This document shows, piece after piece, positions 10,555 to 47,730 of a DNA stretch of 64,000 nucleotides. A model generated the notes under the pieces. That model did not search any database. It worked only from the letters and a program-made list of their open reading frames with translations, and was not told the origin of the DNA. The DNA lies in NCBI RefSeq assembly GCF_006345805.1, contig NW_021832611.1, positions 186,001-250,000 on the forward strand, given 5' to 3'. The stretch is from Octopus sinensis (Eukaryota). Position numbers and translations under genes: made by a program. The number at the start of each line of letters is the position of its first letter. The first letter of the stretch is position 1.

Positions 10555-10950
10555 GTCACGTGAAAAATTGGTCTACTGGTTTTGACTAGAGATACGTTGT
10601 CAAAAATCAAAAAATATAAAGAATCCCAAAATTTCGATAAACTTTTGGATAAGAAGGGGAGATATAAAGTCAAACATCATTCAGAAACCTTCTGGAAAAG
10701 TTTATATACGAAGGTAATTTATAGATATTTGTATTTATTGACTCATTTTCCAAATTTGGTGTTGTTGAGCTAGCTAAAAATAAATCTGCTGTTAAGATTT
10801 CTTTATTAAAAAATATTTTTTACACAATTGGCCCCTCGGTTATTTTACAAACCGGTAACGCGAAGGAATTTTAGAATTTCCATCTTAATGAGATCAAACT
10901 TTAATTTAGAAATAAGTTTAGAACTTATTAAAGGAAAACCAACCAATAAC
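10555..10950 (+). mobile_element. Degenerate Ginger-like integrase remnant (type A paralog)
   Basis: Starts near TGTCAC. LTRDTLSKIK resembles LFKETLDKIK at 29338. After a short intron it reads FIDSFSKF..ELAKNKSA...IFYTIGPSVILQTGNAKEF, matching IVDSFSKY...IFYYVGPPLILHTDNGREF at about 29890-30035. Confidence 0.65.
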
Positions 10951-13205: not shown

Positions 13206-13425
13206 AATCAATCGAATCGTCTCGATGAAAATAAGTTAAGTAAAGAGGTATTAATATTAGATTTATTTTTAGTGTATGGAAACGGATTACCTATTGAGAA
13301 ACAAAGAATATTTGGAAAATACACAGGTTTTAGATAATTTATGTAGCACGAAACGTAAAAAAGTTAGTGTAGAAAATAATAATTTTAAACGATATAGTTT
13401 AGATGATATAAGTGTTAGTCTAGAT

Positions 13426-14565
13426 CAGTGGTTCTCACCCGTGGGCGATTCGCCCCCTAGGTGCGATTTTTTCTGCCAGGGGGGCGATGGCTGATTGCTA
13501 ATATTTGAAAAATTAAAATCTCATGTTAGAAGTCGATAATCTTTGAAAAAATAAAGATATATAATCAAGTCTAATAATATTTATTAATAATATGATATTT
13601 TTATTATATTTTATTTAAATTTCTAAGCGTGATTTCTAGTTATCTTTGTCAGAATGTATAAAGATGAATATATTTCTCTTGGAATGCCCATGCGATCCTG
13701 AGGGCCAACGTCTTCTCGATCATCAGTAGCTTTAGATTGTGATAATCATTTTCGTCCTTTGAATTTGACTATTTCATTAATTTAATTTTTTAAAATGAAT
13801 TTCTCTTGGATTTATTAAAGATCTTCAAGATCCTAATAAACCACTTTGTCTTCAATGTGGTACAATTTTTTCGAATGAGGCAATGAAACCGTCTCGTTTG
13901 ATTGAACATTTAAAGCGAAAACATCATAATTCAATTGGAAAAAAGCCAGACTTTTTTCTAGAATTAAAAAAGAATTTTGAAAATAAAAACACCTTACCGT
14001 CAATCTTTAATAAAAATATATCTCAAAATGTCTCTGGATTATCTTATTCATATAAAGTTGCAGAGATAATCGCAAAAACTGGTTGCATTATTATTTTAAT
14101 TTATAGGTAATGCCCATTCGATTGCAGAAAATGTCATCCGTCCTTGTTTAAATTTATTTATAAACGATATCTTACAAAAAGATTCTTCAAATATTATGAA
14201 AACTATTCCATTATGCAACGACACTATACGAAGAAGAATTGATGAAATTTCTAATGAAATTGAACAATCTTTAATTTTATTTCTCAGAGAACGCAAGTTT
14301 TCAGTCCAACTTGACGAATCAGTTGTCGTTGATAATCAGTCAATTTTGATGGCATATGTAAGGTATTACTTTTTATAAATACTTTTTATAAAGATATTTC
14401 GATGATGATTCTATTTTGCAAGAAGAGTTATTATTTGCAAAATCTTTAGTCACGAATACTACAGGATTGTCAATATTCAAAATGAAATAAGGGGGCGATA
14501 TAAAAATTGGAGAAGCGAAAAAAATTCCAAGGGGGCAATACAAAAATAAAGGTTGAGAACCACTG
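13426..14565 (+). mobile_element. Internally deleted hAT (Buster/Charlie-type) DNA transposon
   Basis: TIRs CAGTGGTTCTCA...TGAGAACCACTG. 8-bp TSD GTCTAGAT (13418-13425, 14566-14573). BED finger PLCLQCG..FSNEAMKPSRL.EHL and motif FSVQLDES. The Helitron frame resumes in register once the element and one TSD are removed. Confidence 0.95.
13684..13798 (+). mobile_element. Very short 5'-truncated CRE-like retrotransposon insertion inside the hAT element
   Basis: 12-bp direct repeat ATTTCTCTTGGA (13672-13683, 13799-13810). The insert reads AILRANVFSIISS*, matching the AIVRSN/AIVRGN C-termini of the other CRE-like fragments. Confidence 0.75.
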
Positions 14566-14787
14566 GTCTAGATAATAAATTTAAAATTAAAGTAAATAGT
14601 TCAAATGAGACGTTTTCGATCTCAATTTTTAGACGAGAAAAGAATAGGTTGCGAATGGCTATGAAAAGGACATCCGAGTCACAAGATCAAAAGGAACATC
14701 GACAAGAATGCAACAGATTAAGAGCAACTATAAGAAGGAGGCAAGAGACCGATGATATGAGGAATTTCAGAAAAAAAACAAGATAGA

Positions 14788-15210
14788 ATGGGGAAGGCTA
14801 TTACTAGGGAACAAGAGTCACAAGAACAAAGGGAACATAGGCAAGAACAAGATAGAATGGGAACGGCTATTAGTAGGGAACAAGAGACACAAGAACAAAG
14901 GGAACATAGGCAAGAACAAGATAGAATGGGAACTGCTATTAGTAGGGAACAAGAGACTCAAGAACAGAGGGAACATAGACAAGAACAAGATAGAATGGGA
15001 ACGGCTATTACTAGGGAACAAGAGTCACAAGAACAGAGGGAACATAGACAAGAACAAGATAGAATGGGGAAGGCTATTAGTAGGGAACAAGAGACAGAAG
15101 AACAAAGGGAACATAGGCAAAAGCAAGATAGAATGAGAACTGCTATTAGTAGGGAACAAAAGACTCAAGAACAGAGGGAACATAGGCAAGAACAAGATAG
15201 AATGGCAACT
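14788..15210 (+). repeat. 69-bp coding tandem repeat (23-aa STPR-like units) in the Helitron N-terminus
   Basis: ATG recurs every 69 nt (14788, 14857, 14926, 14995, 15064, 15133, 15202). Unit MGTAISREQETQEQREHRQEQDR; two degenerate units lie upstream. Confidence 0.95.
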
Positions 15211-18200
15211 GCAAATGAACATGAGCGTCGATACAACGCACCAACATCAAACCAGGTAGGAATTTTAATAGTAGGTCAACAATATGATACTAGAGACATT
15301 ATCATAAACAAAAGATCCACTGGATTAATGAGAATTTCAGAAACGCATCGATCATACGATGCTCTTCAGTACCCATTAATATTCCCCAGAGGAGAGGATG
15401 GCTACAATTTTAGAGTAATGCATATCAATCCATCAACTGGTTTAACAACCACTAAAAAAACCAGTTGTATGGAATTTTATTCTTATAGGTTAATAATACG
15501 AGAGCAAGATTTCAACATGATTCATCGTACAGGACATTTATTTAATCAGTTTATTGTAGATATGTATGCAAAGATAGAAGCAGAGAGACTTCTCTACATT
15601 CGTTTAAATCAGCGAAAACTAAGAGCTGAGGAGTATATACATCTAAGAGATGCAATAATTAATGATGTTAATGTAACTGATGTAGGTCTAATGGTTATTT
15701 TGCCGTCGTCATTCACGGGAGGACCAAGATATATGCATGAACGCACACAAGATGCGATGACGTACGTAAGAAATTACGGAACACCGGATTTGTTTATCAC
15801 TTTTACATGTAATCAAAAATGGCCAGAAATTAGTGATAACATATTTATAGGGCAAAAGGCAGAGTATAGACAAGACAGCATTGCGAGAGTTTTTAAACGG
15901 AAAGTCGATAAGATGAAGGATCTTCTCACAAAGGGACAGATATTTGGAAAGACAAGATGCCACGTGTATACAGTAGAGTGGCAAAAAAGAGGTTTGCCAC
16001 ATATTGTTATGGTTAGTCACTAAAATTAGGGCTACAGAGATAGATGATTGCATACGGGCAGAATTGCCAAATCCAAGTGAAGATAGAGAATTATACGCGA
16101 TCATCAAAAGAAATATGATACATGGTCCATGTGGCATGTATAACAGATCATCACCGTGTATGCGAAATGGTAAGTGTTCTAAAGGGTAACCTAAAAACTT
16201 AATATATAATACGCAAACAGGTGAAAATGGATTTCCGCTTTACCGAAGAAGGGGCACAGCTGAAGGAAGATTTACTGCAACTCTCCGCGAAGGAAAAGAA
16301 AATGAAATAACAGTTGACAACAGGTGGGTGGTGCCTTATAATCCACTGTTATGTAAGATTTTTGATGCTCATATTAATGTTGAATTTTGTAATTCTATTA
16401 GATCAATTAAATATGTATGTAAATACATTAATAAAGGGTCGGATCAAGCAATTTTTACAATTGAGCAGCGTGACGAGCCAAGCTTTTTTCAGCATGGACG
16501 ATTCATCTGCAGTAATGAAGGAGCATGGAGAATTTTCGGATTTCCGATTCATGAAAGATATCCATTAGTAATGTATTTAGCGGTGCACTTGGAAAATGGA
16601 CAAAGGATATATTTTACAGAAGAAACTGCCCGTAATCAAGTTAGGAATCCAAAAAATTCGTCAATGGTGTACTCTGCGAAACATACAGAGAAGCCTGTTT
16701 TAAATTAGGTCTTTTAGAGGATGACAACCACTGGAATCAGACTTTAACAGAAGCCGCAATTGCAGATTCTCCATCGCGACTAAGGTATTTATATACTTTG
16801 ATGCTAGCCCATTGTGGGTTAGCAAATCCTAAGCAACTGTGGGAAGGGCATCGAGAAAGCATGTGCGAAGATATATTAAGAGAGAAATATAGATCGATTT
16901 TTGATGAAGAGATTTTCAACATTGGATTAATCATGATAGACAGATTGCTAATATCTGTCGTAGGTAAGAGTGTAAGTGATTTTGGTTTAACAATCAGTGA
17001 TCTTCATAATATAAATTCTTTAGATGAGCATTATAATTTAGAAGAACTTCAAAAAATTGTGGAAGAAAGAGAACAAAGCTTATTACCTGGGCAGTTGGAA
17101 ATATACAGAGAAATTAACCGAGTCATCCAAGAAGAAAATGGTTCTATCATCTTTATTGATGCACCAGGTGGTACAGGTAAGACCTATCTTCTAAATTTAT
17201 TGTTAGCAAAGGTGAGAAGCGACAATCAAATAGCATTAGCAGTTGCATCGTCTGGAATTGCTGCAACTCTTTTAGATGGAGGTCGAACAGCACATTCAAC
17301 ATTCCCTTGAACCTGTCTTACAATACTGAACCGGTTTGTAATGTGAAAAAAAATTCAGTTGCGGGTTATAGAATTATGAATTCTAGGTTAATTGTTTGGG
17401 ATGAATGCACAATGGCTCATAAGGGCGCATTCGAAGCAGTCGACAGAACATATAGAGATATCAAGAATTGTGAGGAACTGTTGTTTGGGGGAGCAATAGT
17501 TGTATTGGCAGGTGATTTTAGACAAACTCTGCCAATTATTCAAAGAGGGACGCCTGCGGATGAATTGAATGCCTGCCTCAAATCGTCATACCTGTGGACA
17601 CACGTCAAAAAAGTAAGCTTAGATGTAAATGTACGTGCACATTTACAAGGCGTCAATAGCATATTTCCAAATATCCTTTTAGATATTGGAAATGGGGCAA
17701 TTACTTCAGATATACAGGATCAGAAAATCAGTCTACCGGAAGAATTATGTATATATGTGAATACAGCAGAAGAATTATTCAGTTCAGTATATTCTGAACT
17801 ATCAGAACACTACAGGAATTTCGACTGGCTTCGTGAACGAGCTATATTAGCTCCGCTAAATGATGAGGTACTTAATATAAATTTAGATTTATTAATCAAA
17901 ATCCCTGGAGAAGAAAGAATATATAAATCGGTGGACGTTATTATGGACCATGAAAGAGCCTGCGAATATCCGGTTGAATTTTTAAACTCCTTAGATCCCT
18001 CTGGAATGCCGAATCATCTTTTAAAATTAAAGATAGGCGTTCCAGTGGTTTTATTACGAAATCTTGCGCCACCTAAATTATGCAACGGAACGAGGTTAGT
18101 TATCAAAAATTTGATGGCTAACGTAATAGAGACGACGATATTAACAGGTAAGTATAGAGGTGAGGATGTTTATATTCCACGAATTCCGATAATTTCTGAT

Positions 18201-18619
18201 GAATTACCATTTAGATTTAATTTTCACATGGACAGCTGTATGTGGGATGCTCGAGGGTAGGCAGAAGAGAAAATTTATTCATATATGCCAACGAAGGACG
18301 GACGACAAACATCGTTTATCAACAGGCGATAGAATAGGGTTACATTAAACCAGGTAGTTTTATACATCTACATAAACTTATAGTTGTTTGATGAAACAGG
18401 CCCTCCGCAGGAGCTAGGTCGCGGTGAGCGAAGCGAGCTAGTAATAGATAAAAAATTCGAAAGGAGAAATATCGACAGTACTAATGACCAGACTAAAAAA
18501 ATAGTTACCAAAATTTTACTCTTTGTGGTTTTATTAATAAAATGAAATTAATTGAAGTTAATCTTAATTCAAGGTCAATGTAACAGGCTGCCCATAGGTA
18601 TCGCGTGGCCCATGTGACA

Positions 18620-19040
18620 TACTATGAATTTTTGAAGTGACAATATATAAGATACAAATATCACAAAAAATATAAAATAGTAAAAAAGGAGATTAAAATA
18701 ACAAAATCGAAAAATATCACAAAATTATAAATAGTACATCTGCATAAAGAGTGATAAAACAGGACGGAAGCACATTAGATCTAGAAAATGAAGAGGGGGA
18801 AATTATTAAAAAAGTACTATGAATTTTTGAAAAGTGACAAAATATAAGATACAAATATCACAAAAAATATAAAATAGTAAAAAAGGAGATTAAAATAACA
18901 AAATCGAAAAATATCACAAAATTATAAATAGAAATAAATAAAAAAGGAGATTAAAGGAACAAAATCGAAAAATATCACAAAAAGTATAAATAAGTAAAAA
19001 AGGAGATTAAAGGAATAAAATCGAAAAATATCACAAAAAT
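18620..19040. repeat. A-rich imperfect tandem repeat array (about 55-60 bp unit); also at 33205-33400
   Basis: Recurring AAAATCGAAAAATATCACAAAA and AAAAGGAGATTAAA. A direct repeat of about 115 bp spans 18621-18735 and 18815-18930. Confidence 0.85.
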
Positions 19041-20632
19041 GATGAACTTTCAGATAATTAAATCATTAAAAGAAAATACATCTTGAACTATTCCTTTTGA
19101 ATCCCATTAAGATAAAAAAATAAAGTGTAGCAAATAATTAAGAGAGCACCACAAAGTAAATCAACAGCGTGCTCACACGTGGCTTAATTTATTAGGTATT
19201 AGGTTTACCATTTTAAAATTAAGATAATTAACAATAATTAATAAAAAAACTTTATTTTTATTACAAAACAGTGTCAGTAATTCTCACCTTTTCAAAGAGC
19301 AAGGATCCAATAATAACCAGATTATTGAAAAAGGTTATTTTAAATCAATTAAACTCAGAGTTTGTTCCTTACCAACTCGGGGTGGGGATCGTCAACGGTT
19401 GCGAGTCTGACATCGCCAATTCATTTTTTGTATATCAATCCTCACTGGTGACATAACTATTGAATTAGATAAAGCACGTGAGGAGAATACAGGCAGTGTT
19501 GCAGGGGGCTCGAGCGAAGGAGAAGTACAGGGCAGTGAGGGTGGAGTGTCCGTTCTTCTCGGTGGTGCAGGAGTGTATGTACTGGTTGGACATGCGGGAG
19601 GCGGAATATGCTGAAAAGGCAGGTGAGTGAGTGGAGTGAGCGTAGAACTGCAACGACTGAAGGTAGAGATTGTGCGAGTGATGAACGACAGCGAGGACTT
19701 GCAAAGCAAAATTGACTCGTTGGACGCGGAAGTGAAGATGTTCATTCGCAACAAAATAAGGGTGGTGTCCAAGAAAGTGAGCACTACATTGTGCAAGGAC
19801 ATGACCGAGCTGTTGGAAGTGGTGGGCAATGTGTTGTACGTTGTGCAGGTGAGGACAGTCCTTAATGGCAGACACGCCCCTCCTACATCTGCACACTCCT
19901 CACACTCAGTGAGTTCGACTAGTCATTCCTCACTTGACTCAAGAACATTCTCTTCAACACCTTCAACTACGCCACCCACCCACGCAAGGAGTACTTGCTC
20001 ACCAAGGTCCTTGCTTCCCTAATTGCAGAGGACAATCACGTCATCGACTGGGCAATGCAGACTGTTCTGTCATTCATTTGTTTTCACTCTCAGAGTCATT
20101 CGAGATTCCGACGATCGATTTAAGCACTTTTTCGAGTCACTCCTCACCCCATTCCTCCATAACAACGTCCTCCCAATACAAACCGACCCCACTCTCATCT
20201 ACAAGCACTGGGTCTTTCATAGGGAGGCACAGGAGGATATTTTCACGATGGGATTCCCCTTTACTCCTCTAGAGGACTCCCCTACGATGTGGACACACAC
20301 CAAGCACTCGCTCACCAACATGTCCTCACCTCCTTCAATGCGTCCTTCGAAAGACTCATCCAGGCAGTTAAACCAATCTTGAACGCTCTCTTCGCTCACG
20401 TCCAAATTATTCCGTAATCCACCCACTCACCCCAGATATCCCGTCCGCTATCTCGCCAGTCGACTCCTCGCTCGTCTACAAAACCAGGACACCATTTGGG
20501 CACAAGTCGCCAATCTTATCTACTTCCGATACCTCAACTTGGCAATCATCGTCCCTGAATCATTCGGGACATTCACCAGTTCGAGTGACTTCATCATCAC
20601 ACACGACCAGCGGGCCAACTTGGGAGTGCTTG
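18782..20632 (+). repeat. Segmental duplicate, copy 1, of 33133-35074 (repeat array + CRE-like RT scrap + IQGAP fragment)
   Basis: Colinear near-identity from TAGAAAATGAAGAG to TTGGGAGTGCTTG. Copy 1 lacks about 80 bp present at about 33718-33795. Confidence 0.95.
19437..20632 (+). pseudogene. IQGAP: IQGAP-like RasGAP-related domain fragment, truncated copy 1
   Basis: LQSKIDSLDAEVKMFIRNKI, FNTFNYATHPRKEYLL, IQTDPTLIYKHWV, NLIYFRYLNLAIIVPESF and QRANLG match IQGAP GRD motifs. In-frame stops are present. Confidence 0.8.
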
Positions 20633-21083
20633 TTTTTTGAAATTAGGATATTTATAAGATTTTTAAAGAAAAACTAAATATGAGTTTTGAATCATTTTTT
20701 TGTCGAGGAGTGTAAGTAGGGGTGATAAAGTTAATAAAGTTAAATTTTAACATTTTTTATAAAACTTAAATAAAAACTGTTTTTCACTATTTTTGAACAT
20801 TAAATCTCTCGATTTTAAAAAAATTTTTTTAATTTTGTAAACTATGTTTAGCAACAGTGAAGTGCTCAAAAAGGCATTTTGTTGACATCCACAGGTTGTC
20901 CAAGAAACATAAAATTTCCGTTGGTAAGGATTTTTCGATGATATAATATATAAAGGTGACTAAGAAACTTGGCAAAAATAGCACCTGTGGTAGAGAAACC
21001 AAACAAATTTGCCGAAATATTGCCGACATTAACATAAAATTTTTTTTTAAAACCACATAAAATTAAAAAAAAGAATTTTTTGG

Positions 21084-21330
21084 TGTTAATCCCATTTAGT
21101 TTGACGTTAATCCCACTTAGTTTGACGTTAATCCCACTTAGTTTGACGTTAATCCCACCTAGTTTGACGTTAATCCCACTTAGTTTGACGTTAATCCAAC
21201 TTAGTTTGACGTTAATCTCATTTAGTTTTCTGCTAATCCCACTTAGTTTTCTGCTAATCCCACTTAGTTTGACGTTAATCCCATTTAGTTTTCTGCTAAT
21301 CCCACTTAGTTTGGTGTTAATCCCATTTAG
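21084..21330. repeat. 21-bp minisatellite, about 12 units (GTTAATCCCACTTAGTTTGAC and variants)
   Basis: Directly visible head-to-tail units with three variant types and no spacers. Confidence 0.95.
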
Positions 21331-24300
21331 TATAGGAAATAGTATACACTTTCCTCCGCAAAACCTCATCACGTGGTGTCTGACTTTCTTCTTGCCCTGG
21401 CCAAAATGGAGTTCGATGCTTCCTTTGCAATGGATACTTCCATCTCTACTGCCTCAAAATCAGTAAGAAAGCTGCCTCGGCAATCACCAGATGGCTTTTC
21501 CCTGCCTGTATGCCTTCTCCCCACCGTTCTGCGTCTAAACTCACTAATCACCAAACCATGCCCACAACGGTCAGTAACTCATTTGAAAGGGTGGATTCCT
21601 TCCTCGTTGAGTTGTCATGCTTGCACCGGTCTCTAAAAATCCCTTTCCGAATCCCTAAATCTGCCCGTATACAAGCAGCCATGTGCCTGTCAACCGTTAT
21701 TAACGATACGCTTCTGTTGGACACTTGGGAGGAATATCAAATTATGACATGCGATGCGACATTAGACCTTACTCATGAGCGAGTTCAACAAATTATCGAA
21801 TATTTGAGGAACGGAACATATCTCGATTCGTGTTCTCAATCGAAAAGAAATTTTCGAAGACCACCAGACGATTTATATTAAAACGATTTGAACCGTCGGA
21901 AATTTTATACTTTCGTGCTGCACCTGGAGTGTTATTGCGTGTTTTTTCTTCATGTGAAATGAATGAAAAAATGCAATTCATCAATGAAGTACACGAATCA
22001 AATGGGCATCCCGAACGTAATAGACTAATTGGTCTATTATTGGCATGAAATTAGTACGAAAAGTCTTTGTAGATTCCAATATACACACCAGAAAAGGGAT
22101 TATGAACGAACACATCGACGTTAACATCTACGAAGTGGTGGAAATTCTACCACCCGGACAGATCATAATAAAATCTGAAACAACTGGAGAGATCTTCGAA
22201 GAAAATGACAGAAATATCTCCATAATTCGTACATTATGAATAAATTGTAGCGTGCAAGAATGGTCGTTTTTCCTGTGATGCACAAAAATGACAATCTTGA
22301 AGCAGAAAAAAGTGCTGCTAAGCGATCGCGAACAGAAGTGGATGTGGTAGAACCTACTCAGGTAGCCCATGAGGACGGCTGGCGTACCGTTGGGAAACCT
22401 AAACGTATAGCTTGCCAATTCGCCGGAGATGACGAAAACGAGGAAATAGATTATAAAGTCATTGAAAATCTCAAAAAAGCGGAAGAAAAAATGAGTAAAA
22501 AAAGAAAATGGAAATTTGACGAAGAAGATTTTGAAGTGGAAAACTCGGTAATTTTGAGAAACGACATCGATGCAAACAACAGAAAGTTCCCGTTAGATGA
22601 CGGAATATCTGCCAAAAAATATACAGTCACTGAAAAAATGGTTATTTTTGTTATATCAACAATGAAGAAACCAACGAAGAACTTAAAAATATACACATGT
22701 CAAGATTATCGAAATTAAAAACTTACTGATTTTTTGATTTAAAAAAATAAAACTGAGCATTTTTTGGTAACTTTACGGGGAATCCCGCATAGGGATATTT
22801 TTAAAGCCAATCAGTTGAGTTTTTTAAAAAATAAGTAAACATTCTTCTACTGGTTTTCTTTAAATTATTCATTTTTAGGAGATTCCTCATTTCATAGATA
22901 TCGTGGGATTAAAGGATCGACCAACTTAATTCCCGAAAAAGACACTGAGATGAAGAGTGAAAATTCAGATGGTTAGTTAAAATTTGCAATATATAGAATA
23001 GATTCAAAAAACATGGAATTTTCCTTTAATTTTCCGCCCACCGATGTGACATCTCCATATTTCCAAAAAATGAACAGGAAAATGGGTGTTCATCAGTCAA
23101 AACATTCATTTAAAATTGGAGATAAGTAGGGCAACCAATTGCAATTTTTTGCAATTAAATATAATTTAATTAAAATTCGATAAATAATAAAGTAATGAAT
23201 AGACATTAATTTTAATTATATTTTTATTCGATTTAAATTTGCAATTTTTTGCAATTTTTTGTAGTCATTTTACAATTTTTTGCAATTTTTTTAAATTAAA
23301 AAAAAAATTTTTTTGTTAAAAAATAATATAATTATAAGTAAAAGATTATTAAAACGTGTTTTAGTTGTTTGTTGTAATGGGTAAAAGGACAGTGTCACAG
23401 AAAATTTCATTTTATGCAAAGAAATTCCCCGAGTTTGTTATTGACAGTGAAGGGAATTTATTTTGCTCCAATTGCTCAACTGTTGTACGGTGTGACACAA
23501 AATTTTTTGTTGATGCGCACCGTTCTTCAAAAAAACATTTAAAAGCACACAGTATTTCTTTGAATTTAAATTTATAGAATGGACAAATTCATCTCAGAGT
23601 TCACAAACATTTCTTTCGGCGATAACGGATACTCGAAAGGATTGGGGGATCAAAGTAACACAAGCGTTTTTGGAGGCAAACATACCAATTTATAAAATCA
23701 GACATCCTTCCCTCATACGGCTTTTTGAGCAGGAAACATATCCTTTGCCATCTGAATCATCTTGCAGGTTAAATGTTAAAGAAATATCAAAATATAAAAT
23801 TAATACCATTCAGACTCATTTACTGTTGTTTTTTTTAAGTTATTCAATAGTGGGGAATGTGTTTTTTTTGTTTGTGATGAAGCCCAAATCAATGGAACTC
23901 GTTTTTTAATTACTTTGATTGGGAAAATCTCCACTCCAAAAAATCTTCATTTAGTATTGTGTACCAATCTATATTATCCGCCTACTACTTCAACAATTTG
24001 TGTTGAGGTGGACAAAGTAATAAAGAAATTTTCTATTGAACGTGAAAATTTTATATTATTCGTTACAGATGGGGCGAGATATATGACCAGTGGTATATAT
24101 AAATAAATTTAATTTTAGCTGGGGCATCAATGAAATTGATATACCAAAATCTTTTCCACGTGACTTGCGTGTCACATTTATTGCACAACTGTGCTCTAAA
24201 GATTAAGGCATACTTCGCAGATGTTGATGAATTGATTTCGTCTATAAAGGCTGCCACAGTCAAAAACAAGAGACGTTTGGAGATGTTTTCACGAATCGGA

Positions 24301-24759
24301 AATCCACCCGAAGTTGTGTTACAAGATGGGGAAGCTGGCTAAAAGCAGCAAAATATTACTCCCAGAATCTTCCAGAAATTATTAAAATCGTATCTGAATT
24401 TGAAGGAGATGGAGTTTTAATACAAAATGTTTTAGTTTTTAATTATTTTAGGCAAAAAAATCAGTGAATAATCCTACGTTGTTTCCAAGCTTAACCCAAA
24501 TCAGTTCAAATTATTTGGGATTAATTGAAATGATTTCAAATACTGAATTGCTTGATTACTCCATTGCAACAGCTTATGGTGATCTAAACACCCTAGACTT
24601 TACATCAGATCCATGCGACATAAAATCCTATATATCAAAAAAGCTTGAGAAATCAGGAATACTAAGTATTCTAAGTATTCTTGAATGATCAGCGTGTGAC
24701 GTGGTGACGTGGTGTTCTTGTGAGCAAAATAAAAGAAAAATACTAATAACAATTTCACA

Positions 24760-25893
24760 ATGAATTATTCAAAATCCAAGAAGAATTTTAAATCCCCGAA
24801 TATCCAGGCTTCTGTGCCATCAATCTCGGCTTCTGTGCGCTCTATTTCGGCCTCTGTGCCTTCTATCTCGACCTCTGTACCATCTATCTCGGCCTCCGTG
24901 CCATCTATCCCGGCCTCCGTGCCATCTATCCCGGCCTCCGTGCCATCTGTATGCCTGAGTATTGTACTATCAATACACAACTCAGAGCTCGATTCTATTG
25001 AGATAGCAAACACACTTTGTGGTTGTGAAATCGCTTGTAAGGCTCGAGTGACACGTCGTCACTCGGGCGACTACGTTTTGGATTTCAAAAGTAAAGAGGA
25101 TCTTTCGGCCTTTGTTGACTACTGTAAGTATACCCAGCCCTTTGGACCAAATGGTCACAAAATCGAGGAGGCAAAGCCACGTGCGTCCGCGATAATGCTT
25201 AGGAACCTCCCGAACTGGGTTGGAACCGAGGAACTTGTAAAGTATCTGGGTAAACTAATCTCTCCGGGGTTTTTGGTTGAGAGATTTTTCCGAAATGGAA
25301 GTCCACTTCCTCTGGCTAAAGTGACCATCCCCTCTAGGGGTGAAGCAGCCTCTCTCATACGAATGGGGTTGAAAATTGGTTTCCGCGAAATTTTCTGTAG
25401 TTGGTACAAGCAACCAGACACGCAATGTTTCCGCTGCCAGCGTTTCGGACATATCTCACGGTTCTGTAAAGAAAAAGTGAGATGTCTCATTTGTGAGGGC
25501 CCACATACCCGTTCGGAATGTCCTCTGACTGGAAACTACCCTACCAAGTGCATAAACTGTGGATCCTCAACACACATGGCCAACTATGGAGGATGTCCTG
25601 TTGTCAAGGAGCTTCTTAAAAAGAGATTACCTCGGAAAACTACAGATCAGTCTACTAAACTGAAATTTGATACATCTCCCGCAATGAAAATACAAGGAAA
25701 AACGATCAAAACTGAAACAGGAAACGTGAAAGTACAAAATACCTGGAAAGGATGGAACTTTAATAAAAGTACAAAATTCGTGGATGCTGAGGTTCAGACT
25801 GACGATATCTCTGAATCCATGTCAAACACTTTGAAAACTGCGACACCCACTATATCTACGCAAAAACCAAAATTAAAGTTGGAACAAGCGTAA
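24760..25893 (+). CDS. LINE ORF1 gag-like nucleic-acid-binding protein
   Basis: Three zinc knuckles: CFRCQRFGHISRFC, CLICEGPHTRSEC and CINCGSSTHMANYGGC. N-terminal 21-nt (7-aa, ASVPSIS) repeat at about 24807-24948. Confidence 0.9.
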   Translation: MNYSKSKKNFKSPNIQASVPSISASVRSISASVPSISTSVPSISASVPSIPASVPSIPASVPSVCLSIVLSIHNSELDSIEIANTLCGCEIACKARVTRRHSGDYVLDFKSKEDLSAFVDYCKYTQPFGPNGHKIEEAKPRASAIMLRNLPNWVGTEELVKYLGKLISPGFLVERFFRNGSPLPLAKVTIPSRGEAASLIRMGLKIGFREIFCSWYKQPDTQCFRCQRFGHISRFCKEKVRCLICEGPHTRSECPLTGNYPTKCINCGSSTHMANYGGCPVVKELLKKRLPRKTTDQSTKLKFDTSPAMKIQGKTIKTETGNVKVQNTWKGWNFNKSTKFVDAEVQTDDISESMSNTLKTATPTISTQKPKLKLEQA

Positions 25894-26136
25894 ACACAAC
25901 CGAATATATGACTCAACCCAAAAAAGGCATGAAACTCGGGGACACTTCCAAATCAAACCCGGACAACCACCATGCAACATACAGGTGGCAGATGAAAAGA
26001 CAAATGCAATTGAACATTTAAAAGCAAAACTGGAGGACCTCCATCTTAAATCGAAAACGACGACTAAAAAAACGTTTAAAAATTTACTGGAACTGGTGGC
26101 GCTCGTTATGGAGGACAGTCACCAAAACTTGACGAG

Positions 26137-28724
26137 ATGAGCGTTTTTACGCTTATCAACGCCCGGTCAATTCGGAAACGGGCTACGGAGCTAACCTACT
26201 TGGTTAGCTCGGTAAACATGGACATATTGGTTGTTAATGAAACGAAGCTTAAGGGAAATCAGCATCATAAAATCCATGGTTTTCAGTCGATTGATATCCC
26301 ATGGCGACCTGACGCAGTGGCTGGCACTGGGACATCCATATATTATAAAGACAATCTGATGGTGAGGGACTTGAAAATCGTCGAACAAAATTTGTGCGAA
26401 CTGATTACATTGAAACTACTAACATCCCTTGGATGGATATCTGTCGGAGCTATGTACTCCAAAGCAATGAAGAATTATCAAAATCTTATTGAAGAATTTT
26501 TCCAGAACAATGATAGAGGAATTCTAATAGGAGACCTTAACGCAAAACACACATCGTACGGATGTGCCAACACAAATTCGGACGGTAATATACTCCTCAG
26601 ATTATCGGAGAACTGCGGTTTTAGTGTTTTGACCTCACGAGAACCAAACCACTTCTCTTGTTATGGAGAGGATTGTATTGGAGTTTTCCTCGTATCGGCA
26701 GATCTTGTTCATCAATGCAGCATACCAAGGATTGAGATAAACATTGGTAGTGATCACCTACCTCAATCCTTGTGTATGCGAACATCATCTACGATATGCG
26801 AAGATCTGTTTATCGGATACGATACGTCTCGGACAATCTGGTCGGACCTTGAGGTATCAATGAAAAAGCATTTGACACCGTATCCAATACAAAGCATCCC
26901 TTCGAATATACAAATTGAAAAACTTAATAAAATTCTCAGAGAAGCTATACTGGACTTTCTCCGAAAATCTTCAATCAGGAAATACATCATGTCAAATACT
27001 AACAGAAAAACCCGGATTGACGAATCTTTGGGAAAACTTATAAAATGGAAGGGAAACCTTGAAAAGAAGCTAAGACGATGCAGTGACCCCATAGATCGTA
27101 TTCGTCTTCGGGATAAGATTCGTACCGTGAAAATAGAGATAAATGATGTCGCAAAAAAACATTCAGACCTTGCTTGGAAGAGTCAATGCTCGAAACTGAA
27201 TAAGAAAAACCCTCATTTTTGGAAGGTTTTCAACAGACTGAGTAATATGGAGAACAAAGGAGAAGAGATCCGACTAAAAACAACTGAAGGAATAGATATC
27301 CCGCTCGATGAAGTTCCCTCACATCTGCGAAGTCAACTGGCAAAAGTTCAAGAGGTGGATCCGATCGACATGGTTCCGAAAGAAGTTATATGTGAGGCTC
27401 AGAGAAGTCTAAGAGCTAATTTGAGTCATACGGGACCACTGTGCAGAGACATAACGTTGGAAGAAACGTATGCCGCAATTATGAGCTGCAAGAATAATGC
27501 ACCCGGCCATGACTACATTCCAATTTCTGTATTCAAACATGCTCCAAATATTCTCCTACGATACTTGACCGCACTATACAATGCAAGCTGGAGACTTGGA
27601 TACGTACCGGACTCTTGAAAAAGTCAATCGTACGTATGATTCCAAAGCCTGGAAAAATAAAGGACCATGCAGAGAACTATAGGCCGATAAGCCTAATATG
27701 CTCCGTCTCTAAAATTATGGAACGGATTGTCTTCACAAGACTTTCGAACTTCGTAGAGGAATCAGGTGCACTTGCAGTAGAGCAGTGGGGATTCCGACGA
27801 AAAAGATCCTGTGGTGATTGTTTCGGAGAACTCGAGAAAGTCATCTCGCTTAGTCTTGCTAATAATACAGCGACTATTGCTATCTGCCTCGATGTCTCAA
27901 AAGCTTTTGACAGCGTATGGCACCTGGGCCTCTTGGAAAGTGTCGCCAAGAGCAAACCCGGGTCTAAAACGGTCAATTGGCTGAAGAGCTATTTATCAAT
28001 GAGAAGGTCATACATACGATGCGGAAACCGTTTGTCGGAATCTGTCGATCTCAAAAGAGGGGTACCTCAAGGCTCGGTCTTGAGCCCCCTGCTTTTTAAT
28101 ATTTACGTTGCTGATATTCCAAAACCGAAAGATCCTACCAGTCGTCTCATGATCTACGCGGACGACATATTAATAACGGATGCTTCGTGGAGAAAAGACA
28201 TCTCGTGGAGGAAGTTAAAAGGATACGTGACAAGAGTGGAAGAATGGTGCATATCAAAAGGACTGACGCTTGCAAAAGAAAAGTGCACCGCCACTTGGAT
28301 TGCAAAACAGGGAGCAAAACGAAAACCGCCGAGAAACCTCTATGGGTTTACAGTAACGGAGAACCTGAAATACCTTGGGGTTGAAGTTGGATCCAAGGGT
28401 TCTTACTTCAGATACATCGACTCGAGGAGAAGGAAATGCGCTCAAATTCTCAGGAGCATAATTCACTTCCACCTTTCCCCGGAAACGTTTTTATATGTTT
28501 ATAAAACGTGCGTCGAACCATTGCTTACCTACGGGTTCGAGGGATGGTATCCTACTGCTGAAAGGGATGGCATTATCGCTAAGCTCGAAAAGACGAGGCG
28601 ATATGCCATCAAATTGGCAAATGGACTCCAGTTGGACCAACCCATCCCTCAAGTGATGGAAGACGCGACGGAAACGGTTGGAAGTGTTCTTGAGAGAGCC
28701 TTTTCCTCTCGAATTAAATATTAA
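26137..28724 (+). CDS. LINE ORF2 (APE endonuclease + reverse transcriptase), 1-nt frameshift at about 27617
   Basis: INARSI, VNETKL, IGDLNAKH, GSDHLP; YRPISL, QWGFR, LDVSKAFDSV, GVPQGSVLSP, YADD, KYLGV. Confidence 0.95.
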
Positions 28725-29337
28725 AAAAAAAAAAAAAAAAGAGGGAAACAACGAAGAAGAGGCATACGTTGTCTCATTAACTTTCTCCCTCTTTTTTCGG
28801 CTTTTCCGTTAATAAAAATTCATTCATTCATTATTACAATAAATAATTTCGTTAATTTTTTGCATAATGTAATGTTTACAATTAAAAAAAATTATTTTTG
28901 CAATTTTTTACAATTTTTAAAATTCATTTTTGCAATTTTTTTTATTAAAAAGTGCAATTTTTTGGTTGCCCTAGAGATAAGGTAAACTCAAATTATTCTA
29001 AATTGTAGATAAGGATTCAAAAGGACTATAATACCAATCCTTCACTTGCACTCAAGAAATTCCAAAGTCCATACGGAGAAGTTTGTACAATAAGTGAAAT
29101 CCTCCCGCATAATATGGTCAGAGTTGAAATGAACGATGGAACGAAGACACTTATAAAAAGAATTAAAAAATTTAAATAATATGTGACAGTCCGAATAAAA
29201 TACACGCCGAATAATCTACACTTGTCAAAAATGGCTGAAAAAATTAGAAATCTAAAATTAGTATGAAAAAAATCAATAATTGATTATTTATTTTAGTAGA
29301 ATCACATTATTATTTTTTATTTAAAAAAGCGTGAAAC

Positions 29338-30687
29338 ATGCGTGTAGTGAGATTATTTAAGGAAACACTGGACAAAATCAAAGAAATGAAAGACTCCAAC
29401 TTTGATACATCGTCAATCGAGCGGCATGAGCGATACAGGCTCACAAAATTGGGAAAGAATTTCCATTTTGAAAATGGAAAAACATATTTTCGAAAAAATG
29501 GGCTTAAATTGCGTTTTTTTCTGTGAAGATGAAATCGAATTAAAGCTTAAGTGCGTTGAGGTCCAACTTAATAAATAAAATTTAGGCGGAACATAACTAT
29601 AACCACTTTGGGAGAGACCGGCTTTTTTCGAAATTAAGAAATCTCAATTATGGATTGAATAGAGAAGAAATCTCTAAGGTGATTTTGCTTTGTGCTTTCT
29701 GTCAGGTAATAACTCCTTTCAGTAAATATTTTTAGTGAAAAAAATATTGTCTACAAAGCCTCCAATTACGCCAATCATTGCAAGGAGATGTAGAGACAGA
29801 TACATTGCGGATTTAATTGACCTTAGAAGATATTCGGCGTTGAATGATGGCTTTAGCTGGGTATGAATTTAATGTTAATAAATAGATTTTGGTAATTGTG
29901 GATTCTTTTTCCAAATATGTAATGCTTGAACTGTCGGTGACCAAATCTTCTGCAGAAATCGCAGATTTATTACAAAGAATTTTTTATTATGTCGGGCCTC
30001 CGCTTATTCTACACACTGATAATGGAAGGGAATTTTGCAATTCGCAAATGGATGCTCTATGTACGAAATATGGTATAAAACATGTACGTGGGAGGCCTCG
30101 TGCTCCTTGGGTACAAGGGCAAGTCGAAAGGTTAATGATTTAAAATCGATTTGTAGATTTAATCAAAGCATAAAACGCTGGATATCGTCGGCAAGTTCTT
30201 CTCAAAATTGTTTTGGACGATATCGCGAATGCATAAAGGACATCGTGTATGATTACAATAACAGCATTCATTCTTCGACAAAAAAAATCCCTTTTTATAT
30301 ATTCATGGGTGTTGAAAATCCTGGAAGGATTGATGAAGGGGGAATGGAGCAACTTTTAGCCTATGATTCAACTGGATTATCAGAGGCACGAGAAAGTGCA
30401 TTAGAAAACTTAATTATTGCTGGCGAAAAAATGATTGAAAAAAGAAAATGGAGATACGACGAAGAAAATATCAATGTCGGAACGACTGTGCTTTTAAGGT
30501 CTCAAGCGTCAAATTAATTTTTAGACAGGACAACGATGCCAATGTTCGGCAGTATCCGCTGTACGATGGACTTGATGTTAATAAGTATATTGTTGTCGAG
30601 CGAAGAAATGATCTCTATGTTATCGAAAAGGAGGACGGTGAGCGGTTACACGGAATTCATATTTCTCGATTAGCTAAAATTGATTAA
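29338..30687 (+). CDS. Integrase gene A (HHCC + rve DDE + C-terminal SH3-like domain), 5 tiny introns, two 1-nt lesions
   Basis: Introns at 29561-29585, 29706-29735, 29861-29885, 30131-30156 and 30499-30524. The spliced product has HNYNHFGRD..CAFC, RYIADLIDL, HTDNGREF, QGQVERFN and YNNSIHS. Confidence 0.88.
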
Positions 30688-30985
30688 TTTTCATAAATCC
30701 ATAATAAAAATAATTTTTTATTTAAATTAACGATAAATTTTATATGAAAATTTTATTAGGATAACCTAAAATGGAATAACAATATTCAAACGTATAAGTT
30801 AACTGCGTAAATTGAGTGTGATTGGTTTTGTTTATATAAATTAGTAAAAAAGGTTAATGAATTTTACATTAAAAATCATATTTTTAATATAAATTAAGCA
30901 ATTTATATGTCTATTTAGTAATAATCATTTTTATTTTTGAAAATGTTTTTATTTTTTGCAAAAAATAATAAATTTTTATTTGAGC

Positions 30986-32353
30986 ATGGGATATCTATCG
31001 ATGTGCAATTATGAAAGGGATCAGATTATTGATTATCTAGTCAATGCGAATTTACCGTCAACACTCAGTACCGCCAATGAAATTCGTTCCTTCAGGCTCC
31101 GGGCGAGTAAGTTTATTCACTTTCCGCCGAATCTTATGTTTAAACGTGGAGTTGATCATTTTGTCCGATTTTTTACTGTTGAAGAACAAGAACAACTTTA
31201 TGATTATGTCCGGTTGTGTCACCTGGATACGGGGCATCCAGGTCGAGATAAATTATTCAATCATATGAAGAACTTGGCATATGGAATTAGCATAGAACAT
31301 GTGAATCATGTTCTAAGTGCATGTACAACTTGCATAGCTCGTCGTACGCTCGCAACCAGGAGACAAATTACTCCAATAATTGCCAAGTTTTCACGAGAAA
31401 GGCTGATTATCGATCTTGTGGACCTAAGATATTACAGCGATCAAAATAGTGGCGAAAAATGGTTGCTGGTGATAATGGACTCGTTTACGAAATACTGTTG
31501 GACTTCAGCACTGAAATCAAAGAACTCGGCTGATGTGATACCGAGGATACGAAGTGTTGTTCTTTCTTTGGGGGAAGTATTCATAATACATACCGACAAT
31601 GGACTTGAATTCTGCAACTCGCGGATGACGCAGTTGTGCGAAGAATTTGGAATTCGCCATGTCAGGGGGAGGGCCCGATGTCCCTGGATACAGGGTCAAG
31701 TGGAACGACTTAATCAGACACTCAAATGGATGCTCAGTTCGACGTTATTAACCAACGGGAATGGATTTCGTTGGATTGATATCCTCGAAAATATAACATA
31801 CGCATATAATACAAGGATACACTCTACAACGCGCTTTTCTCCTGTTCATTTGATGTATGGCCCACGGATTAGAGAACAAATGGCTCGAGGTCATACTCAG
31901 GCACTCATTGAATATATTGATTCCATCAATCAATGACTACAATGAAGAGCCAAGAAACGAGCAAATTCAACAAAACTACATGGACTTGATGTGGAAACAA
32001 ACGACAACGAGATGGATCGACTTGTAGTAGCTTCTGCAGCAGCCGAAGATTTACGAGATATTGCGAGGAGGAATACTAATAGTGCTGCTGAATCCATGAG
32101 GAGACGATCTAATTGGAGGAATGATATCCTTGACTTTCCTCTGGGGACGAAAGTGGTCATCCACACCGACACAGATACGAATACAACAACACGCCGTCGA
32201 CCATTCCACGAACATTTGGATTGTACTGAATATACTGTCGTTGGGATTTTACAGCACGACAGGGTCCAAATTAGTTCGACGAATATGTTGATCAATCATG
32301 AGGCCCCTTACGAGATCGATATTAATAGACTAGCTATCGTTGGAAAACTATAA
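30986..32353 (+). CDS. Integrase gene B (HHCC + rve DDE + C-terminal SH3-like domain), apparently intronless, interrupted at 31934-31945
   Basis: HLDTGHPGRD..CTTC, RLIIDLVDL, HTDNGLEF, QGQVERLN, YNTRIHS. The C-terminal ORF 31991-32353 is in the same frame, after two TGA codons. Confidence 0.88.
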
Positions 32354-33132
32354 AAATTTGTTTCGGAATAAACTTCTTTATATCTTAAATTTTTGTTCTT
32401 TTATGATTGCAATCGAAAATAGACAACTATTTGCTATTTCAAAAAAAAAAGAATTTGAATTACTTTTCCATATTTTCATTTTTGTTTAAATAAAATGAAT
32501 CGAAACTAAAATACACTCCATAAAGATTTAAACGCGAAATTGACTAAATTGTTAACAAAAAGCGTCATTTAAACATTAAAAAAATTAACAATTCAAACAA
32601 TAAACGAATCTATTCTTAAGCAAATATTTTCATTATTCCTGTACGATTTTAAAGCAGATTTTGTAGTAAGCTATTTATTAATTTATAAAATTATCAAATT
32701 AACGAAAAAATCGTCCTGCACAGTATTTGTCTTTATAGATTTCTCTTTTGGACAATATAAAATTATAATTATTTTACTTCGGATCGCTATTTCCTGGTAT
32801 CTCTATTACTGTAACAATAATTAAACATTTTGTTGTGAAATTTTTAATTTCAGTAAAATTAAAGAATGTAATATTCGCGTGTATTTTATTCGGACTGTGA
32901 CATAATATAATTGTCTTGATTGTTTTGTTAATAAAAAAAATTCAAATCCTAATTAACAGAGAAACATTTATAACCGAACATTCAAATAGGCTCGTGACAT
33001 ATTATTAAGTGTATGAAATATCTAACTAGGGTAGGTCCCTTCAATCCTGGGGGTCATTTCAAGCCTGTATCAATAAATAATTATTAAAAATTATTTGCGG
33101 CCCCTGAGTAAAGAAGATTGAGAATCACTCAT

Positions 33133-35074
33133 TTAGAAAATGAAGAGAGGGAAATTATTGAAAAAGTACTATGAATTTTTAAAAAGTGACTCGCCTTCGG
33201 CGTCGCAAAAATATCACAAAAAGTAGAAATAAGTATAAAAAAAGAGATTAAAAAACAAAATCGAAAAATATCACAAAAATTATAAATAAAAATAAGTAAA
33301 AAAGGAGATTAAAGAAACAAAATCGAAAAATATCACAAAAAGTATAAATAAGTAAAAAAGGAGATTAAAGGAATAAAATCAAAAAATATCAAAAAAATGA
33401 TGAACTTTCAGATAATTAAATCATTAAAAAAAATACATCTTGATTTATTCCTTCTGAATCCAATTAAGATAAAAAATAAAGTGTACCGTATAATTAAGGA
33501 AGCACCACAAAGTAAATCAACAGCGTGCTCACACGTGGCTTAATTTATTAGGTATTAGGTTTACCATTTTATAATTAGGATAATTGACAATAATTAATGA
33601 AAAAAAAACTTTATTTTTATTACAAAACAGTTTTGAATGTCAGTAATTCTCACCTTTTCAGAGAGCAAGGATCCAATAATAACCAGATTATTGAAAAAGG
33701 TGATTTTAAATCAATTAATCTTGGCTATAGCAATTGAAAACTACTTCCGCCGCCTGACTGCTAAATTGGCAGCGAAGAGTGTATGGCCCCGCTCAACTCA
33801 GAGTTTGTTCCTTACCAACTCGGGGTGGGGATCGTCAACGGTTGCGAGTCCGACATCGCCAATTCATTTTTTGTATATCAATCCTCACTGGTGACATAAC
33901 TATTGAATTAGATAAAGCACTTGAGGAGAATACAGGCAGTGTTGCAGGGGGCTCGAGCGAAGGAGAAGTACAGGGCAGTGAGGGTGGAGTCTCCGTCCTT
34001 CTCGGTGGTGCAGGAGTGTATGTACTGGTTGGACATGCGGGAGGCGGAATATGCGGAGGAGGCATGTGAGTGAGTGGAGTGAGCGTAGAACTGCAACGAC
34101 TGAAGGTAGAGATTGTGCGAGTGATGAACGACAGCGAGGACTTGCAAAGCAAAATTGACTCGTTGGACGCGGAAGTGAAGATGTTCATTCGCAACAAAAT
34201 AAGGGTGGTGTCCAAGAAAGTGAGCACTACATTGTGCAAGGACATGACCGAGCTGTTGGAAGTGGTGGGCAATGTGTTGTACGTTGTGCAGGTGAGGACA
34301 GTCCTTAATGGCAGACACGCCCCTCCTACATCTGCACACTCCTCACACTCAGTGAGTTCGACTAGTCATTCCTCACTTGACTCAAGAACATTCTCTTCAA
34401 CACCTTCAACTACGCCACCCACCCACGCAAGGAGTACTTGCTCACCAAGGTCCTTGCTTCCCTGATTGCAGAGGACAATCACGTCATCGACTGGGCAATG
34501 CAAACTGTTCTGTCATTCATTTGTCCTCACTCTCAGAGTCATTTGAGATTCCGACGATCGATTCAAGCACTTTTTCAAGTCACTCCTCACCCCATTCCTC
34601 CATAACAACGTCCTCCAATACAAAACGACCCCACTCTCATTTACAAGCACTAGGTCTTTCATAGGAAAGGACAGGAGGGTGTTTCCACGTTGGGATTCCC
34701 CTTCACTCCTCTAGAGGACTCCCCTACGATGTGGACACACACCAAGCACTCGCTCACCAACATGTGCTCACCTCCTTCAATGCTTCTTTCGAAAGACTCA
34801 TTCAGGCAGTTAAACCAATCTTGAACGCTCTCTTCGCTTACGTCCAAATTATTCCGTAATCCACCCACTCACCCCAGATATCCCGTCCGCTATCTCACCA
34901 GTCGACTCCTCGCTCGTCTACAAAATCAGGACACCATTTGGGCACAAGTCGCCAATCTTATCTACTTCCGATACCTCAACTTGGCAATCATCGTCCCCGA
35001 GTCATTCGGGGCATTCACCAGTTCGATCAACTTCATCATCACACACGACCAGCGGGCCAACTTGGGAGTGCTTG
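33133..35074 (+). repeat. Segmental duplicate, copy 2, of 18782-20632
   Basis: Colinear near-identity. Includes hairpin CGCCTTCGGCG (about 33192-33202) and the CRE-like RT scrap AIAIENYFRRLTAK...PYQLGVGIVNGCE (33718-33860). Confidence 0.95.
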
Positions 35075-35869: not shown

Positions 35870-36275
35870 CACTGTACTTCGAACCAATTGCCTACGCCTA
35901 CGGATCATGGGGTTCGCGGTTATCGTGGTCCAACAGGAGGCGAATCCAGGAGGTCTAACAAAGGGCCCACAGATTAACCGATCGTTGGTCACACGTGTTG
36001 CAGGTGAGTGTGTATGACTGAGGCTGTAGTTTTTGCATTTTTATATGGTCCTTCGATACGCTTCCAGCTCCTCTGGAAGACCTTATCAAGCTGAACCTCG
36101 GTTCGTCAGCAAATGCCCCGTCAAAAACGGCCTGCCGCCCGGTGCGATCTTGCGTAAGCTCGTAAAAAGATCACCGAGCGAAGATGAGGCCTCTGGTCGA
36201 GTGCATCGGGATCACGTGACGCTTGTTTGATTTTTTGCCGTGGTCTTGGCGGTTAAATAAATAAATAAAATAAAT
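35870..36275 (+). mobile_element. Probable LINE 3' end fragment with (TAAA)n tail
   Basis: GC-rich segment ending in a stop, a short UTR and TAAATAAATAAATAAAATAAA. No catalytic motif is visible. Confidence 0.45.
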
Positions 36276-46494: not shown

Positions 46495-47730
46495 CCGTAT
46501 TTTCGTATATACGATGGGTCTCATCTTTACACATGATGTCCGATATTTTGATTAGACTCATTTATAAGACGGATGACAAAAAGTAAGTAAAATGAGAAAA
46601 GTAAACAATTAAAATCAGCAGAAATCTAATTTTACGGTTTCGTATAAAGTATTTGAATTTTAGATTCGGAAAAAATAAGAAAATTATTCTTTAAATTATT
46701 ATTTTGTACTTTTTTTAAATAGTTCATAAAACTGCTCACCGGAAATCATTATACTCCGTCTTCTCTTCTTCATTTAAGCCATTTCTGCCTCAAATAAGCT
46801 TAGTGAAAAGTTGGCCATCTTCTCTCCCGTGATGAAATTTAGCATTTGAGAAACGATTTGATACAAATATCTGGCGGAATTTCGTTCCAAAGATAGATAA
46901 TCTTCTAACAAACTGTAGCTAATCAATGTCATGTAAATGTCCTGTTTTCGCTAGCTGTTTCTATTTTTGACCGTCAATTTATATGTAAATACTAAAAAAC
47001 TGTAGAAAAAAATGTTAATCAAACTGATCAAAATTTGAAATTATGTAACGAATATTTTTTTTCTAATTTTTCAAAAATCTTAAAATTAAATTTTTTTGTT
47101 GGAAATCAAATTTTACAATATATTTAAAATGTTTTTAATGTAAAGCGCTTTATTAATTGTGACCGGTTGAATATGAGCCCAGGTTGAATACGAGCCGTTA
47201 AACGAGCCGTTTAAATTGCTCCATTTAAATTGATGTTTAGAGCTTCTGCCGATGAATCTATAAATGATCACTACACCGAAGTGGAAATGAATGAGATATT
47301 CGAACAAATTGATTCTTGGAATGAAGAAGCACAGTCTGAAGCGACTGAGTATCTTGCATGGTTTTGGTCATCAAGTGAAACTACGAGAACCAAGTTTTCC
47401 TTTGATTTTTTCCTGGTCGTCAGAGTTTCTGATTGTTACTATATGATCCCCCATATCCTGTAATTGATTTCATAGGCTGTGCGTTATGAAATTCAGGGGA
47501 CTGTTTATGGGATATAGGTTGGACAGTCCACTCCCAGACGGTTCGACAGCAGCAGCGGCCACTACCAATCCCTGGTCCGCTCGGCCATCAAGGGCATTCG
47601 AGGGGTGTTGTACTGCTGGAGAAACAATGCAGTGACATGCACCTATTGTCGTTCAAGAAGCACACCTGTCTGTTTTACGGTTTCGTATACAGTATTTGGA
47701 TTTTAGATTAGGAAAAAATGAGAAAATTTT
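46495..47730. mobile_element. Degenerate Tc2/pogo-like debris with a direct repeat of about 55 bp
   Basis: CCGTA...TACGG termini-like motifs. TTTTACGGTTTCGTATA..GTATTTG.ATTTTAGATT occurs at 46630-46685 and 47673-47727. Confidence 0.35.

Follow-up and report, generated by a model that had tools for sequence, protein, structure and literature searches.

The question that this locus raises is whether a transposon with two integrase genes inside one pair of ends stands by itself, or whether the decayed integrase pieces upstream of it make such multi-integrase cassettes a trait of the family, as an earlier note on this DNA had proposed. The window, by which we mean the whole 64,000-nucleotide stretch that was analyzed, is AT-rich eukaryotic DNA with a kinase gene and an astacin/CUB gene at 4.6-9.6 kb (candidate introns of 25-31 nt) and, between roughly 9.8 and 35 kb, many repeats nested in one another, among them a Helitron, LINEs, and hAT-like elements. 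The tiny introns, when taken with a host link, suggest that the DNA comes from a dicyemid: according to PMC6736024, O. sinensis was the source of the Dicyema japonicum that was sequenced, whose GC content is 36.7% and whose introns average 38 bp.

The bounded two-integrase element is the solid new finding of this analysis; described Ginger transposons encode one transposase. The element (Table 1) is 3.7 kb long and carries only two integrase genes inside its one pair of ends. Its inverted ends are 26 bp, or 32 bp when the target duplication is counted, and both follow the TGTNR pattern, with TGTGA at 29182 and TGTCA at 32902; TGTCA is also present at 32999 and 18619. A reverse transcriptase domain is absent from its frames, and the ends share just the 32-bp inverted match. 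HHCC and DD35E are kept in A, in B, and in the database protein P0007. The A and B proteins are 35% identical over 386 aa, no extended similarity is seen when their DNA is compared, and the 297-bp spacer between the two genes holds no inner terminus. Gene B matches P0001, a protein labelled Octopus sinensis, at 100% over 266 aa. Because the breaks in gene B near 31935-31980 are open in the near-identical P0001, which is itself broken elsewhere, they may be read errors or copy differences. P0106, which is of the A type and has 66% identity to gene A, seems to be translated through short introns; their two positions are shared with introns of gene A.

Table 1. Features of the locus, by position in the window
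Feature	Position	Strand	Remarks
A'', A-type 5' part and half core	10582..10907	+	separate, more decayed; internal deletion; 2 stops in 102 codons
Second predicted right terminus	18448..18619	+	TGTGACA then TACTA; AATAAA before; weak 18-residue integrase-like tail
B', N-terminal part	21755..22039	+	pre-zinc-finger region and H-x4-H; two small frameshifts; 73-91% to P0007
B', C-terminal module	22039..22239	+	follows internal deletion of ~277 codons; stop overlaps AATAAA
B'-A' gap	22240..22421	+	182 bp, 46% GC, open, in frame with A', no terminus; long linker or foreign piece
A', C-terminal module only	22437..22730	+	homology may reach ~22390; one frameshift; lacks gene A's last intron; AATAAA at 22746
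C', 3' part 1	22848..23126	+	end of core, linker, start of C-terminal module; predicted introns 22853-22878, 22972-23001
hAT-like insertion	23127..28973	+	TAGGG...CCCTA ends, 8-bp duplication GAGATAAG, contains LINE; splits C'
C', last predicted intron and last exon	28982..29179	+	intron 28982-29008; stop codon; HMM 21 bits (control maximum 2.2); 42% to P0102
Two-integrase element	29182..32902	+	26-bp inverted ends starting TGT; 5-bp TAATA duplication (29177-29181, 32903-32907)
Gene A	29338..30687	+	~405 aa; five predicted introns of 25-30 nt; HHCC and DD35E; two single-base breaks
Gene B	30986..32353	+	intronless; HHCC and DD35E; frameshifts near 31935-31980
Rest of C' 3' region	32908..32999	+	AATAAA at 32930; predicted right terminus GTGACA, then TATTA
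Predicted left terminus and linker fragment of B' subclade	47158..47394	+	tandem 17-bp repeats; 44% to P0060, 41% to P0007

The structure model of P0001 (mean pLDDT 84.8) finds its best fold matches in foamy-virus and Ty3 integrases, so that, going by this model, cut-and-paste transposition through an intasome is the likely mode of action of the element. By analogy with retroviral and Ty3 intasomes, whose fold it resembles, one or both integrases would bind short repeated sites at the TGT...ACA ends and excise the element, which would then be joined to TAnTA targets with a 5-bp stagger.

Among known systems, the available passages of PMC2836005 describe Ginger2/Tdd transposons as having TGTNR termini, inverted ends of about 50-180 bp (45-297 bp tabulated), and an H2C2 plus DDE architecture said to lack YPYY and GPY/F, and the available part of PMC10045372 gives their target site duplication as 4 or 5 bp. 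Our element shares with these descriptions the TGTNR termini, an AT-rich 5-bp duplication, an H2C2 plus DDE core, the absence of reverse transcriptase, and the possibility of introns, but it has two integrase genes instead of a single transposase gene, inverted ends of 26 bp rather than 45-297 bp, and what may, by eye, be a YPYY-like N-terminal motif, which Ginger2 is said to lack. The motif in question is a Y-P-F-Y/F-like pattern seen by eye in B and P0007, and the P0001 model has a C-terminal beta module. Measured against the published description of Ginger2, the element agrees in terminus, duplication, and domains and departs in end length and gene number, and we call it Ginger-like. Ginger1, in the same portion of PMC2836005, has a 4-bp CCGG/CCGT duplication, ends of 40-270 bp and usually OTU or Ulp1 domains. 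It is like our element in the integrase-like transposase of about 400 aa, the TGTNR ends, the introns, and possibly the YPYY-like motif, whereas the 5-bp TAATA duplication and the 26-bp inverted ends differ; a search for OTU, Ulp1, and PHD domains, which bear on Ginger1 membership, gave no Pfam match, either in the pieces of A and B or among 50 members of the family. All 50 of these members carry rve, and 39 of the 50 carry Integrase_H2C2. FUN-MUPI-2 of Mucor piriformis, as far as the accessible text of PMC13469147 describes it, is likewise a eukaryotic DNA transposon with two transposase genes, but its two genes, of the Tc1/mariner type, are identical copies within long inverted repeats, while those here are in tandem and 35% identical. 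Unlike a Gypsy LTR retrotransposon, the element has neither long direct terminal repeats nor reverse transcriptase, and its 3.7 kb, 5-bp duplication, and two integrase genes set it apart from the 6-bp duplication and large multi-gene body of a Polinton/Maverick. Our search of the literature, with most subscription journals and Repbase outside its reach, turned up no account of a Ginger element in which two divergent integrases are combined, nor of Ginger elements in dicyemids.

Upstream of the element lie three remnants, which we call B', A', and C' after the types that they resemble. The order of types is reversed with respect to the intact element, B-A-C against A-B, as the earlier note had observed. 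From 21746 onward that note saw a B-type N-terminus fused to a B-type C-terminus, and B' is indeed an internally deleted copy of P0007, with a likely start at 21755. Residues 5-36 of P0007 correspond to 21765-21860 (91%), residues 31-96 to 21842-22039 (73%), and residues 374-394 to 22039-22101 (86%); the jump from residue 96 to 374 at 22039 indicates one deletion of about 277 codons, by which the whole catalytic core was lost. The HMMs used here were built from database proteins only and gave 7-39 bits with the remnants and at most 2.7 bits with five control sequences; the N-terminal part of B' scores 35.5 bits (controls 0). No stop occurs in its 155 codons. A PHD-finger-like non-LTR repeat piece, preceded by a 21-bp minisatellite at 21079-21340, ends 19 bp upstream of B', and the repeat at 21504-21735 matches 11837-12068.

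The A-type C-terminus reported at 22400-22718 is equally real: the frameshift-aware score of A' against gene A is 189 (maximum of 32 in eight shuffles), and the module runs on through one frameshift to a stop at 22728-22730, with 0 stops in 95 codons. A second A-type piece, A'', accounts for the core suspected at 10555-10950; it scores 37 bits by HMM (controls 0) and 105 at the DNA level (shuffled maximum 38) and shares the acceptor of gene A's intron 3. Its greater decay (2 stops in 102 codons vs 0 in 95) speaks weakly against A'' being the 5' half of A', the difference being too small for significance. A further piece that had been placed on the minus strand at 20880-21000 did not hold up: five family HMMs gave less than 4 bits, and 28 of 30 shuffles matched the best pairwise score. 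The plus-strand stretch 20833-20910 is instead a match to the hAT-like element at 23.45 kb, in its zinc-finger-like N-terminal part (score 82; maximum of 300 shuffles, 42).

The two old remnants that adjoin each other, then, once more pair an A-type with a B-type gene; 182 bp separate them, no terminus lies in that interval, and neither has in-frame stops. This speaks for the reading that we tentatively prefer, at somewhat under an even chance: that the remnants, on one strand and from three different Ginger-like integrase genes, come from an older B-then-A transposon that had inserted into a separate C-type transposon and was later cut by deletions. Against an older B/A element stand the lack of a left end in the window, the reversed order, the 46% GC of the B'-A' gap, the rejection of B and P0007 as an exclusive pair, and the moderate 88/88 support of the A group (see below for the last two). 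The A-B spacer of the intact element has 16% GC, and the gap, at 46%, is thus not a preserved spacer; its 22260-22421 frame gave no usable Atlas match and no match within the window.

The third remnant rejoins across the hAT-like insertion, just as had been proposed, and C' begins at about 22850, farther 5' than first thought (scores of 72 and 80 for the extension vs shuffled maxima of 33 and 34). Its three predicted introns are 26-30 nt long, the spliced 138-codon frame has no internal stop, and the stop count is 0 in 126 codons. The GAGATAAG duplication of the hAT-like insertion sits exactly at an exon/intron border of C'. The insertion owes its label to its ends, its duplication length, and motifs that we presume to be those of hAT elements; Pfam gave no hAT match on 23127-28973. 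The two-integrase element, in turn, is inserted at the C' stop codon, which is included in the five duplicated bases, and the reconstructed empty site consists of the C' stop, AATAAA, and then GTGACA (32994-32999) plus TATTA, with the predicted right terminus 97 bp past the stop. The suggestion that the intact element had inserted into a relative ending at 32999 was therefore correct for the 3' end of the C' unit, with the TAATA duplication on its stop. An HMM search of the window found no C-type 5' half upstream of C'. Since A' and C' are 3' ends only, since A' is without the intron present in A, and since single-base breaks are scattered through the sequence, one could picture the 3' fragments as assembled by 5'-truncated retrocopies or assembly chimeras, but C' keeps three predicted introns, exact target duplications surround both insertions, and B' has both its ends, and we find such an origin barely credible. 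Intact parents were sought in the protein database, where the A-type search gave one of 2402 candidates (P0027) and the C' search none of two; the missing A' and C' parents count for little, given how poorly annotation copes with genes that have 25-nt introns.

Termini bear on how many elements are represented. The pattern TANTATGTSAC occurs four times in the window vs 0.17 expected (0 of 100 shuffles); two of the four are the ends used to draw the pattern, and the other two are 32999 and 18619. With this excess and TATTA next to it, the GTGACA at 32999, singled out in the earlier note, stands as a predicted end. The 18619 end is independently supported because repeat homology begins exactly at 18620; the score of its tail was reached by 1 of 30 shuffles. 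This Ginger-like right end, at 18442-18624, is cut off by a Helitron 3' end at ~18441. At 47158-47394, the predicted left end is followed by a linker fragment of a third B-type family, and a 71-bp direct repeat (46630, 47673) lies some way off on either side. Within the window, no left end was found for 18619 and no right end for 47158, and the search for a left end matching 32999 returned, with up to three mismatches allowed, one match, which was 32999 itself. Relic ends in the two gaps (182 and 97 bp) were not above background under three scoring schemes. An apparent similarity between the A'-C' gap and the 18619 end also failed, and a search for inner termini that would bound A, B, or B' singly, or the span from A'' to A', gave poly-A/T chance matches at best.

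The lack of termini between the remnants agrees with the idea that B-A-C was one element. Such a three-gene element would have ended at 32999 and undergone three internal deletions, each taking a catalytic core. Besides the shared strand, the gaps of 182 and 97 bp, and the absent inner termini, it could draw on the lack of in-frame stops in B', A', and C', on the two-gene precedent that adjoins them, and on the B'-subclade fragment that follows the predicted left end at 47158, an end with a 7-mer in common with that at 32999. However, every integrase piece of the window has plus-strand orientation, which therefore says little about linkage; the similarity of the 47158 and 32999 ends is not above background; a left end was not found in the window; and C', of a distant clade, is a demonstrated insertion target. 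We consider a single three-gene element improbable. C' is more likely a separate host element, as indicated by its distant clade, its own AATAAA, its terminus 97 bp past the stop, and its role as the landing site of the A/B element. No terminus lies between A' and C', so that separating the C' element from the rest needs a deletion.

Integrase relationships were examined in trees built with LG+G4 without a mixture model, from which P0001 and fragments not spanning the chosen region were left out. In the C-terminal tree (50 rows), A' groups with A (99/94), B' with P0007 (100/99), and C' with P0102 (99/96); the A and B types fall into one group (99/91), with C' outside. The full-length tree (32 rows) supports the B clade at 99/96 and the A group at 88/88. 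The core tree, with 129 rows, did not recover the A group; in it, Gypsy-type matches form a separate group and the family stands apart (support 81) from a second group whose motif we take to be KRBA2/Ginger2-like. An H-x4-H zinc finger is present in 12 of 12 B-clade proteins and in 0 of 14 others examined, and B' has it as well. That A-like and B-like pieces form separate groups is borne out by the C-terminal tree, the B clade, and the zinc finger, with the A group at just 88/88. A sister pair of A and B is rejected (AU p 0.001), and the paralogs are therefore older than both loci and did not arise by duplication inside this element. To this extent the earlier claim that the paralogs predate both elements survives. 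Its second half, co-retention, finds no such support: the order is reversed, and an exclusive pair of B and P0007 is rejected as well (AU p 0.0008), B grouping with P0005 of Nosema granulosis and P0007 with P0006 and P0009 of Dictyocoela muelleri, which is a misfit to simple descent of one pair. As far as these sequences tell, joint descent is not apparent from the A and B trees.

The same observations can be arranged as a nest of single-gene elements, B' in A' and A' in C', with the inner ends deleted and the full-length A/B element a one-off composite. A complete gene, two 3'-only genes, and one terminus follow in the order that nesting leaves; an A-type 5' half does lie upstream, at 10582-10907; the surrounding 9.8-35 kb is a pile of nested repeats; the order is unlike A-B; and the B genes form no exclusive pair. 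As a weak hint, the 3' region of gene A faintly resembles the right-end region of C', as if A had once ended an element (6 of 1000 shuffles, in a post hoc comparison that was one of many). Yet a terminus relic is found in neither gap, and a C-type 5' half was not found upstream; two deletions would be needed, each taking inner ends, and the repeated pairing of A with B would be left to chance. We rate this history as possible though unlikely. The C' unit can be seen to have served the full-length element as an insertion target, and for this reason we favor an older B/A element in the same target over three nested singles or a three-gene cassette. On this preferred reading, the C' element would have been present first, and the B'/A' element would then have inserted near the end of the C' core. 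Deletions would have taken the core of B', most of A', and the right end of the B'/A' element, with the hAT-like element, a LINE, and the full-length A/B element arriving later. The probable origin of two-gene cassettes is the nesting of one element in another, followed by erosion of the inner ends.

As for the trait itself, the bounded A+B element and the adjacent B and A remnants bear the proposal out in part, whereas one bounded older element does not emerge, its left end being absent in the window. Transposons with two integrases likely appeared repeatedly in this small, parasite-like genome; the old remnants make this more probable and are no proof. If the pairing recurs, it offers a natural test of role division between paralogous integrases in one intasome and of how nested transposons turn into stable composites. 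Transposition machineries of more than one protein have precedents: in Paramecium, PiggyMac and its Pgm-like partners, all of the transposase family, are said to form one, as domesticated and dispersed proteins, and that of bacterial Tn7 includes TnsA and TnsB, which are unrelated enzymes. By analogy, A and B might act jointly, hypothetically. A long shot, in our estimate, is that a Ginger-like lineage, shared horizontally by microsporidia and dicyemids, stably carries two or three ancient, catalytically intact integrase paralogs that form one mixed intasome with divided labor (e.g., inner catalytic and outer target-binding subunits); were it true, a mobile element of eukaryotes would have a heteromeric integrase.

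The family links a tiny-intron animal parasite with microsporidia. Microsporidian integrases (P0005 and P0019 of Nosema granulosis; P0006 and P0009 of Dictyocoela muelleri) are the closest named relatives of B and B', with 46-57% identity to B and a PW-QGQVER core motif in common. They are compared here at the protein level, and their records are labelled KRAB-A domain protein 2, Pro-Pol, or Gag-Pol; genes A and C' of the present locus differ in carrying tiny introns. Ginger has been reported from microsporidia, according to the available part of PMC5751038. P0001 and P0007 are both recorded as "Octopus sinensis KRAB-A domain protein 2-like"; they are probably transposases of a contaminating dicyemid, and our results suggest as much for some of the records under that name. 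The prokaryotic genomes scanned yielded 12 loci, distant integrases at 23-40% identity with one region each. Four large multi-integrase proteins examined as possible cassettes (P0025, P0050, P0085, and P0090) contained repeated retrotransposon-type sequences instead.

Other repeats of the window were recorded as well. One LINE family is present in three copies that are 91-98% identical (1463-2809, 27418-28847, and 60019-60797). A Helitron with Helitron_like_N and PIF1 domains and a 69-bp tandem repeat occupies ~13250-18441 and is interrupted at ~13427-14567 by an element with CAGTGG ends and an 8-bp duplication. Short frames at 9780-10150 may be like a piggyBac C-terminus, given motifs that we take to be of that kind, and a perfect 107-bp inverted repeat at 42092-42640 and a 34-bp inverted repeat at 36030-37026 possibly mark non-autonomous elements. 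Finally, a 1.9-kb block is duplicated at 18779-20632 and 33131-35074 (90-97%), starting 130-160 bp past both orphan right ends, and the longer of the two copies shows weak similarity to RasGAP (E 5e-5).
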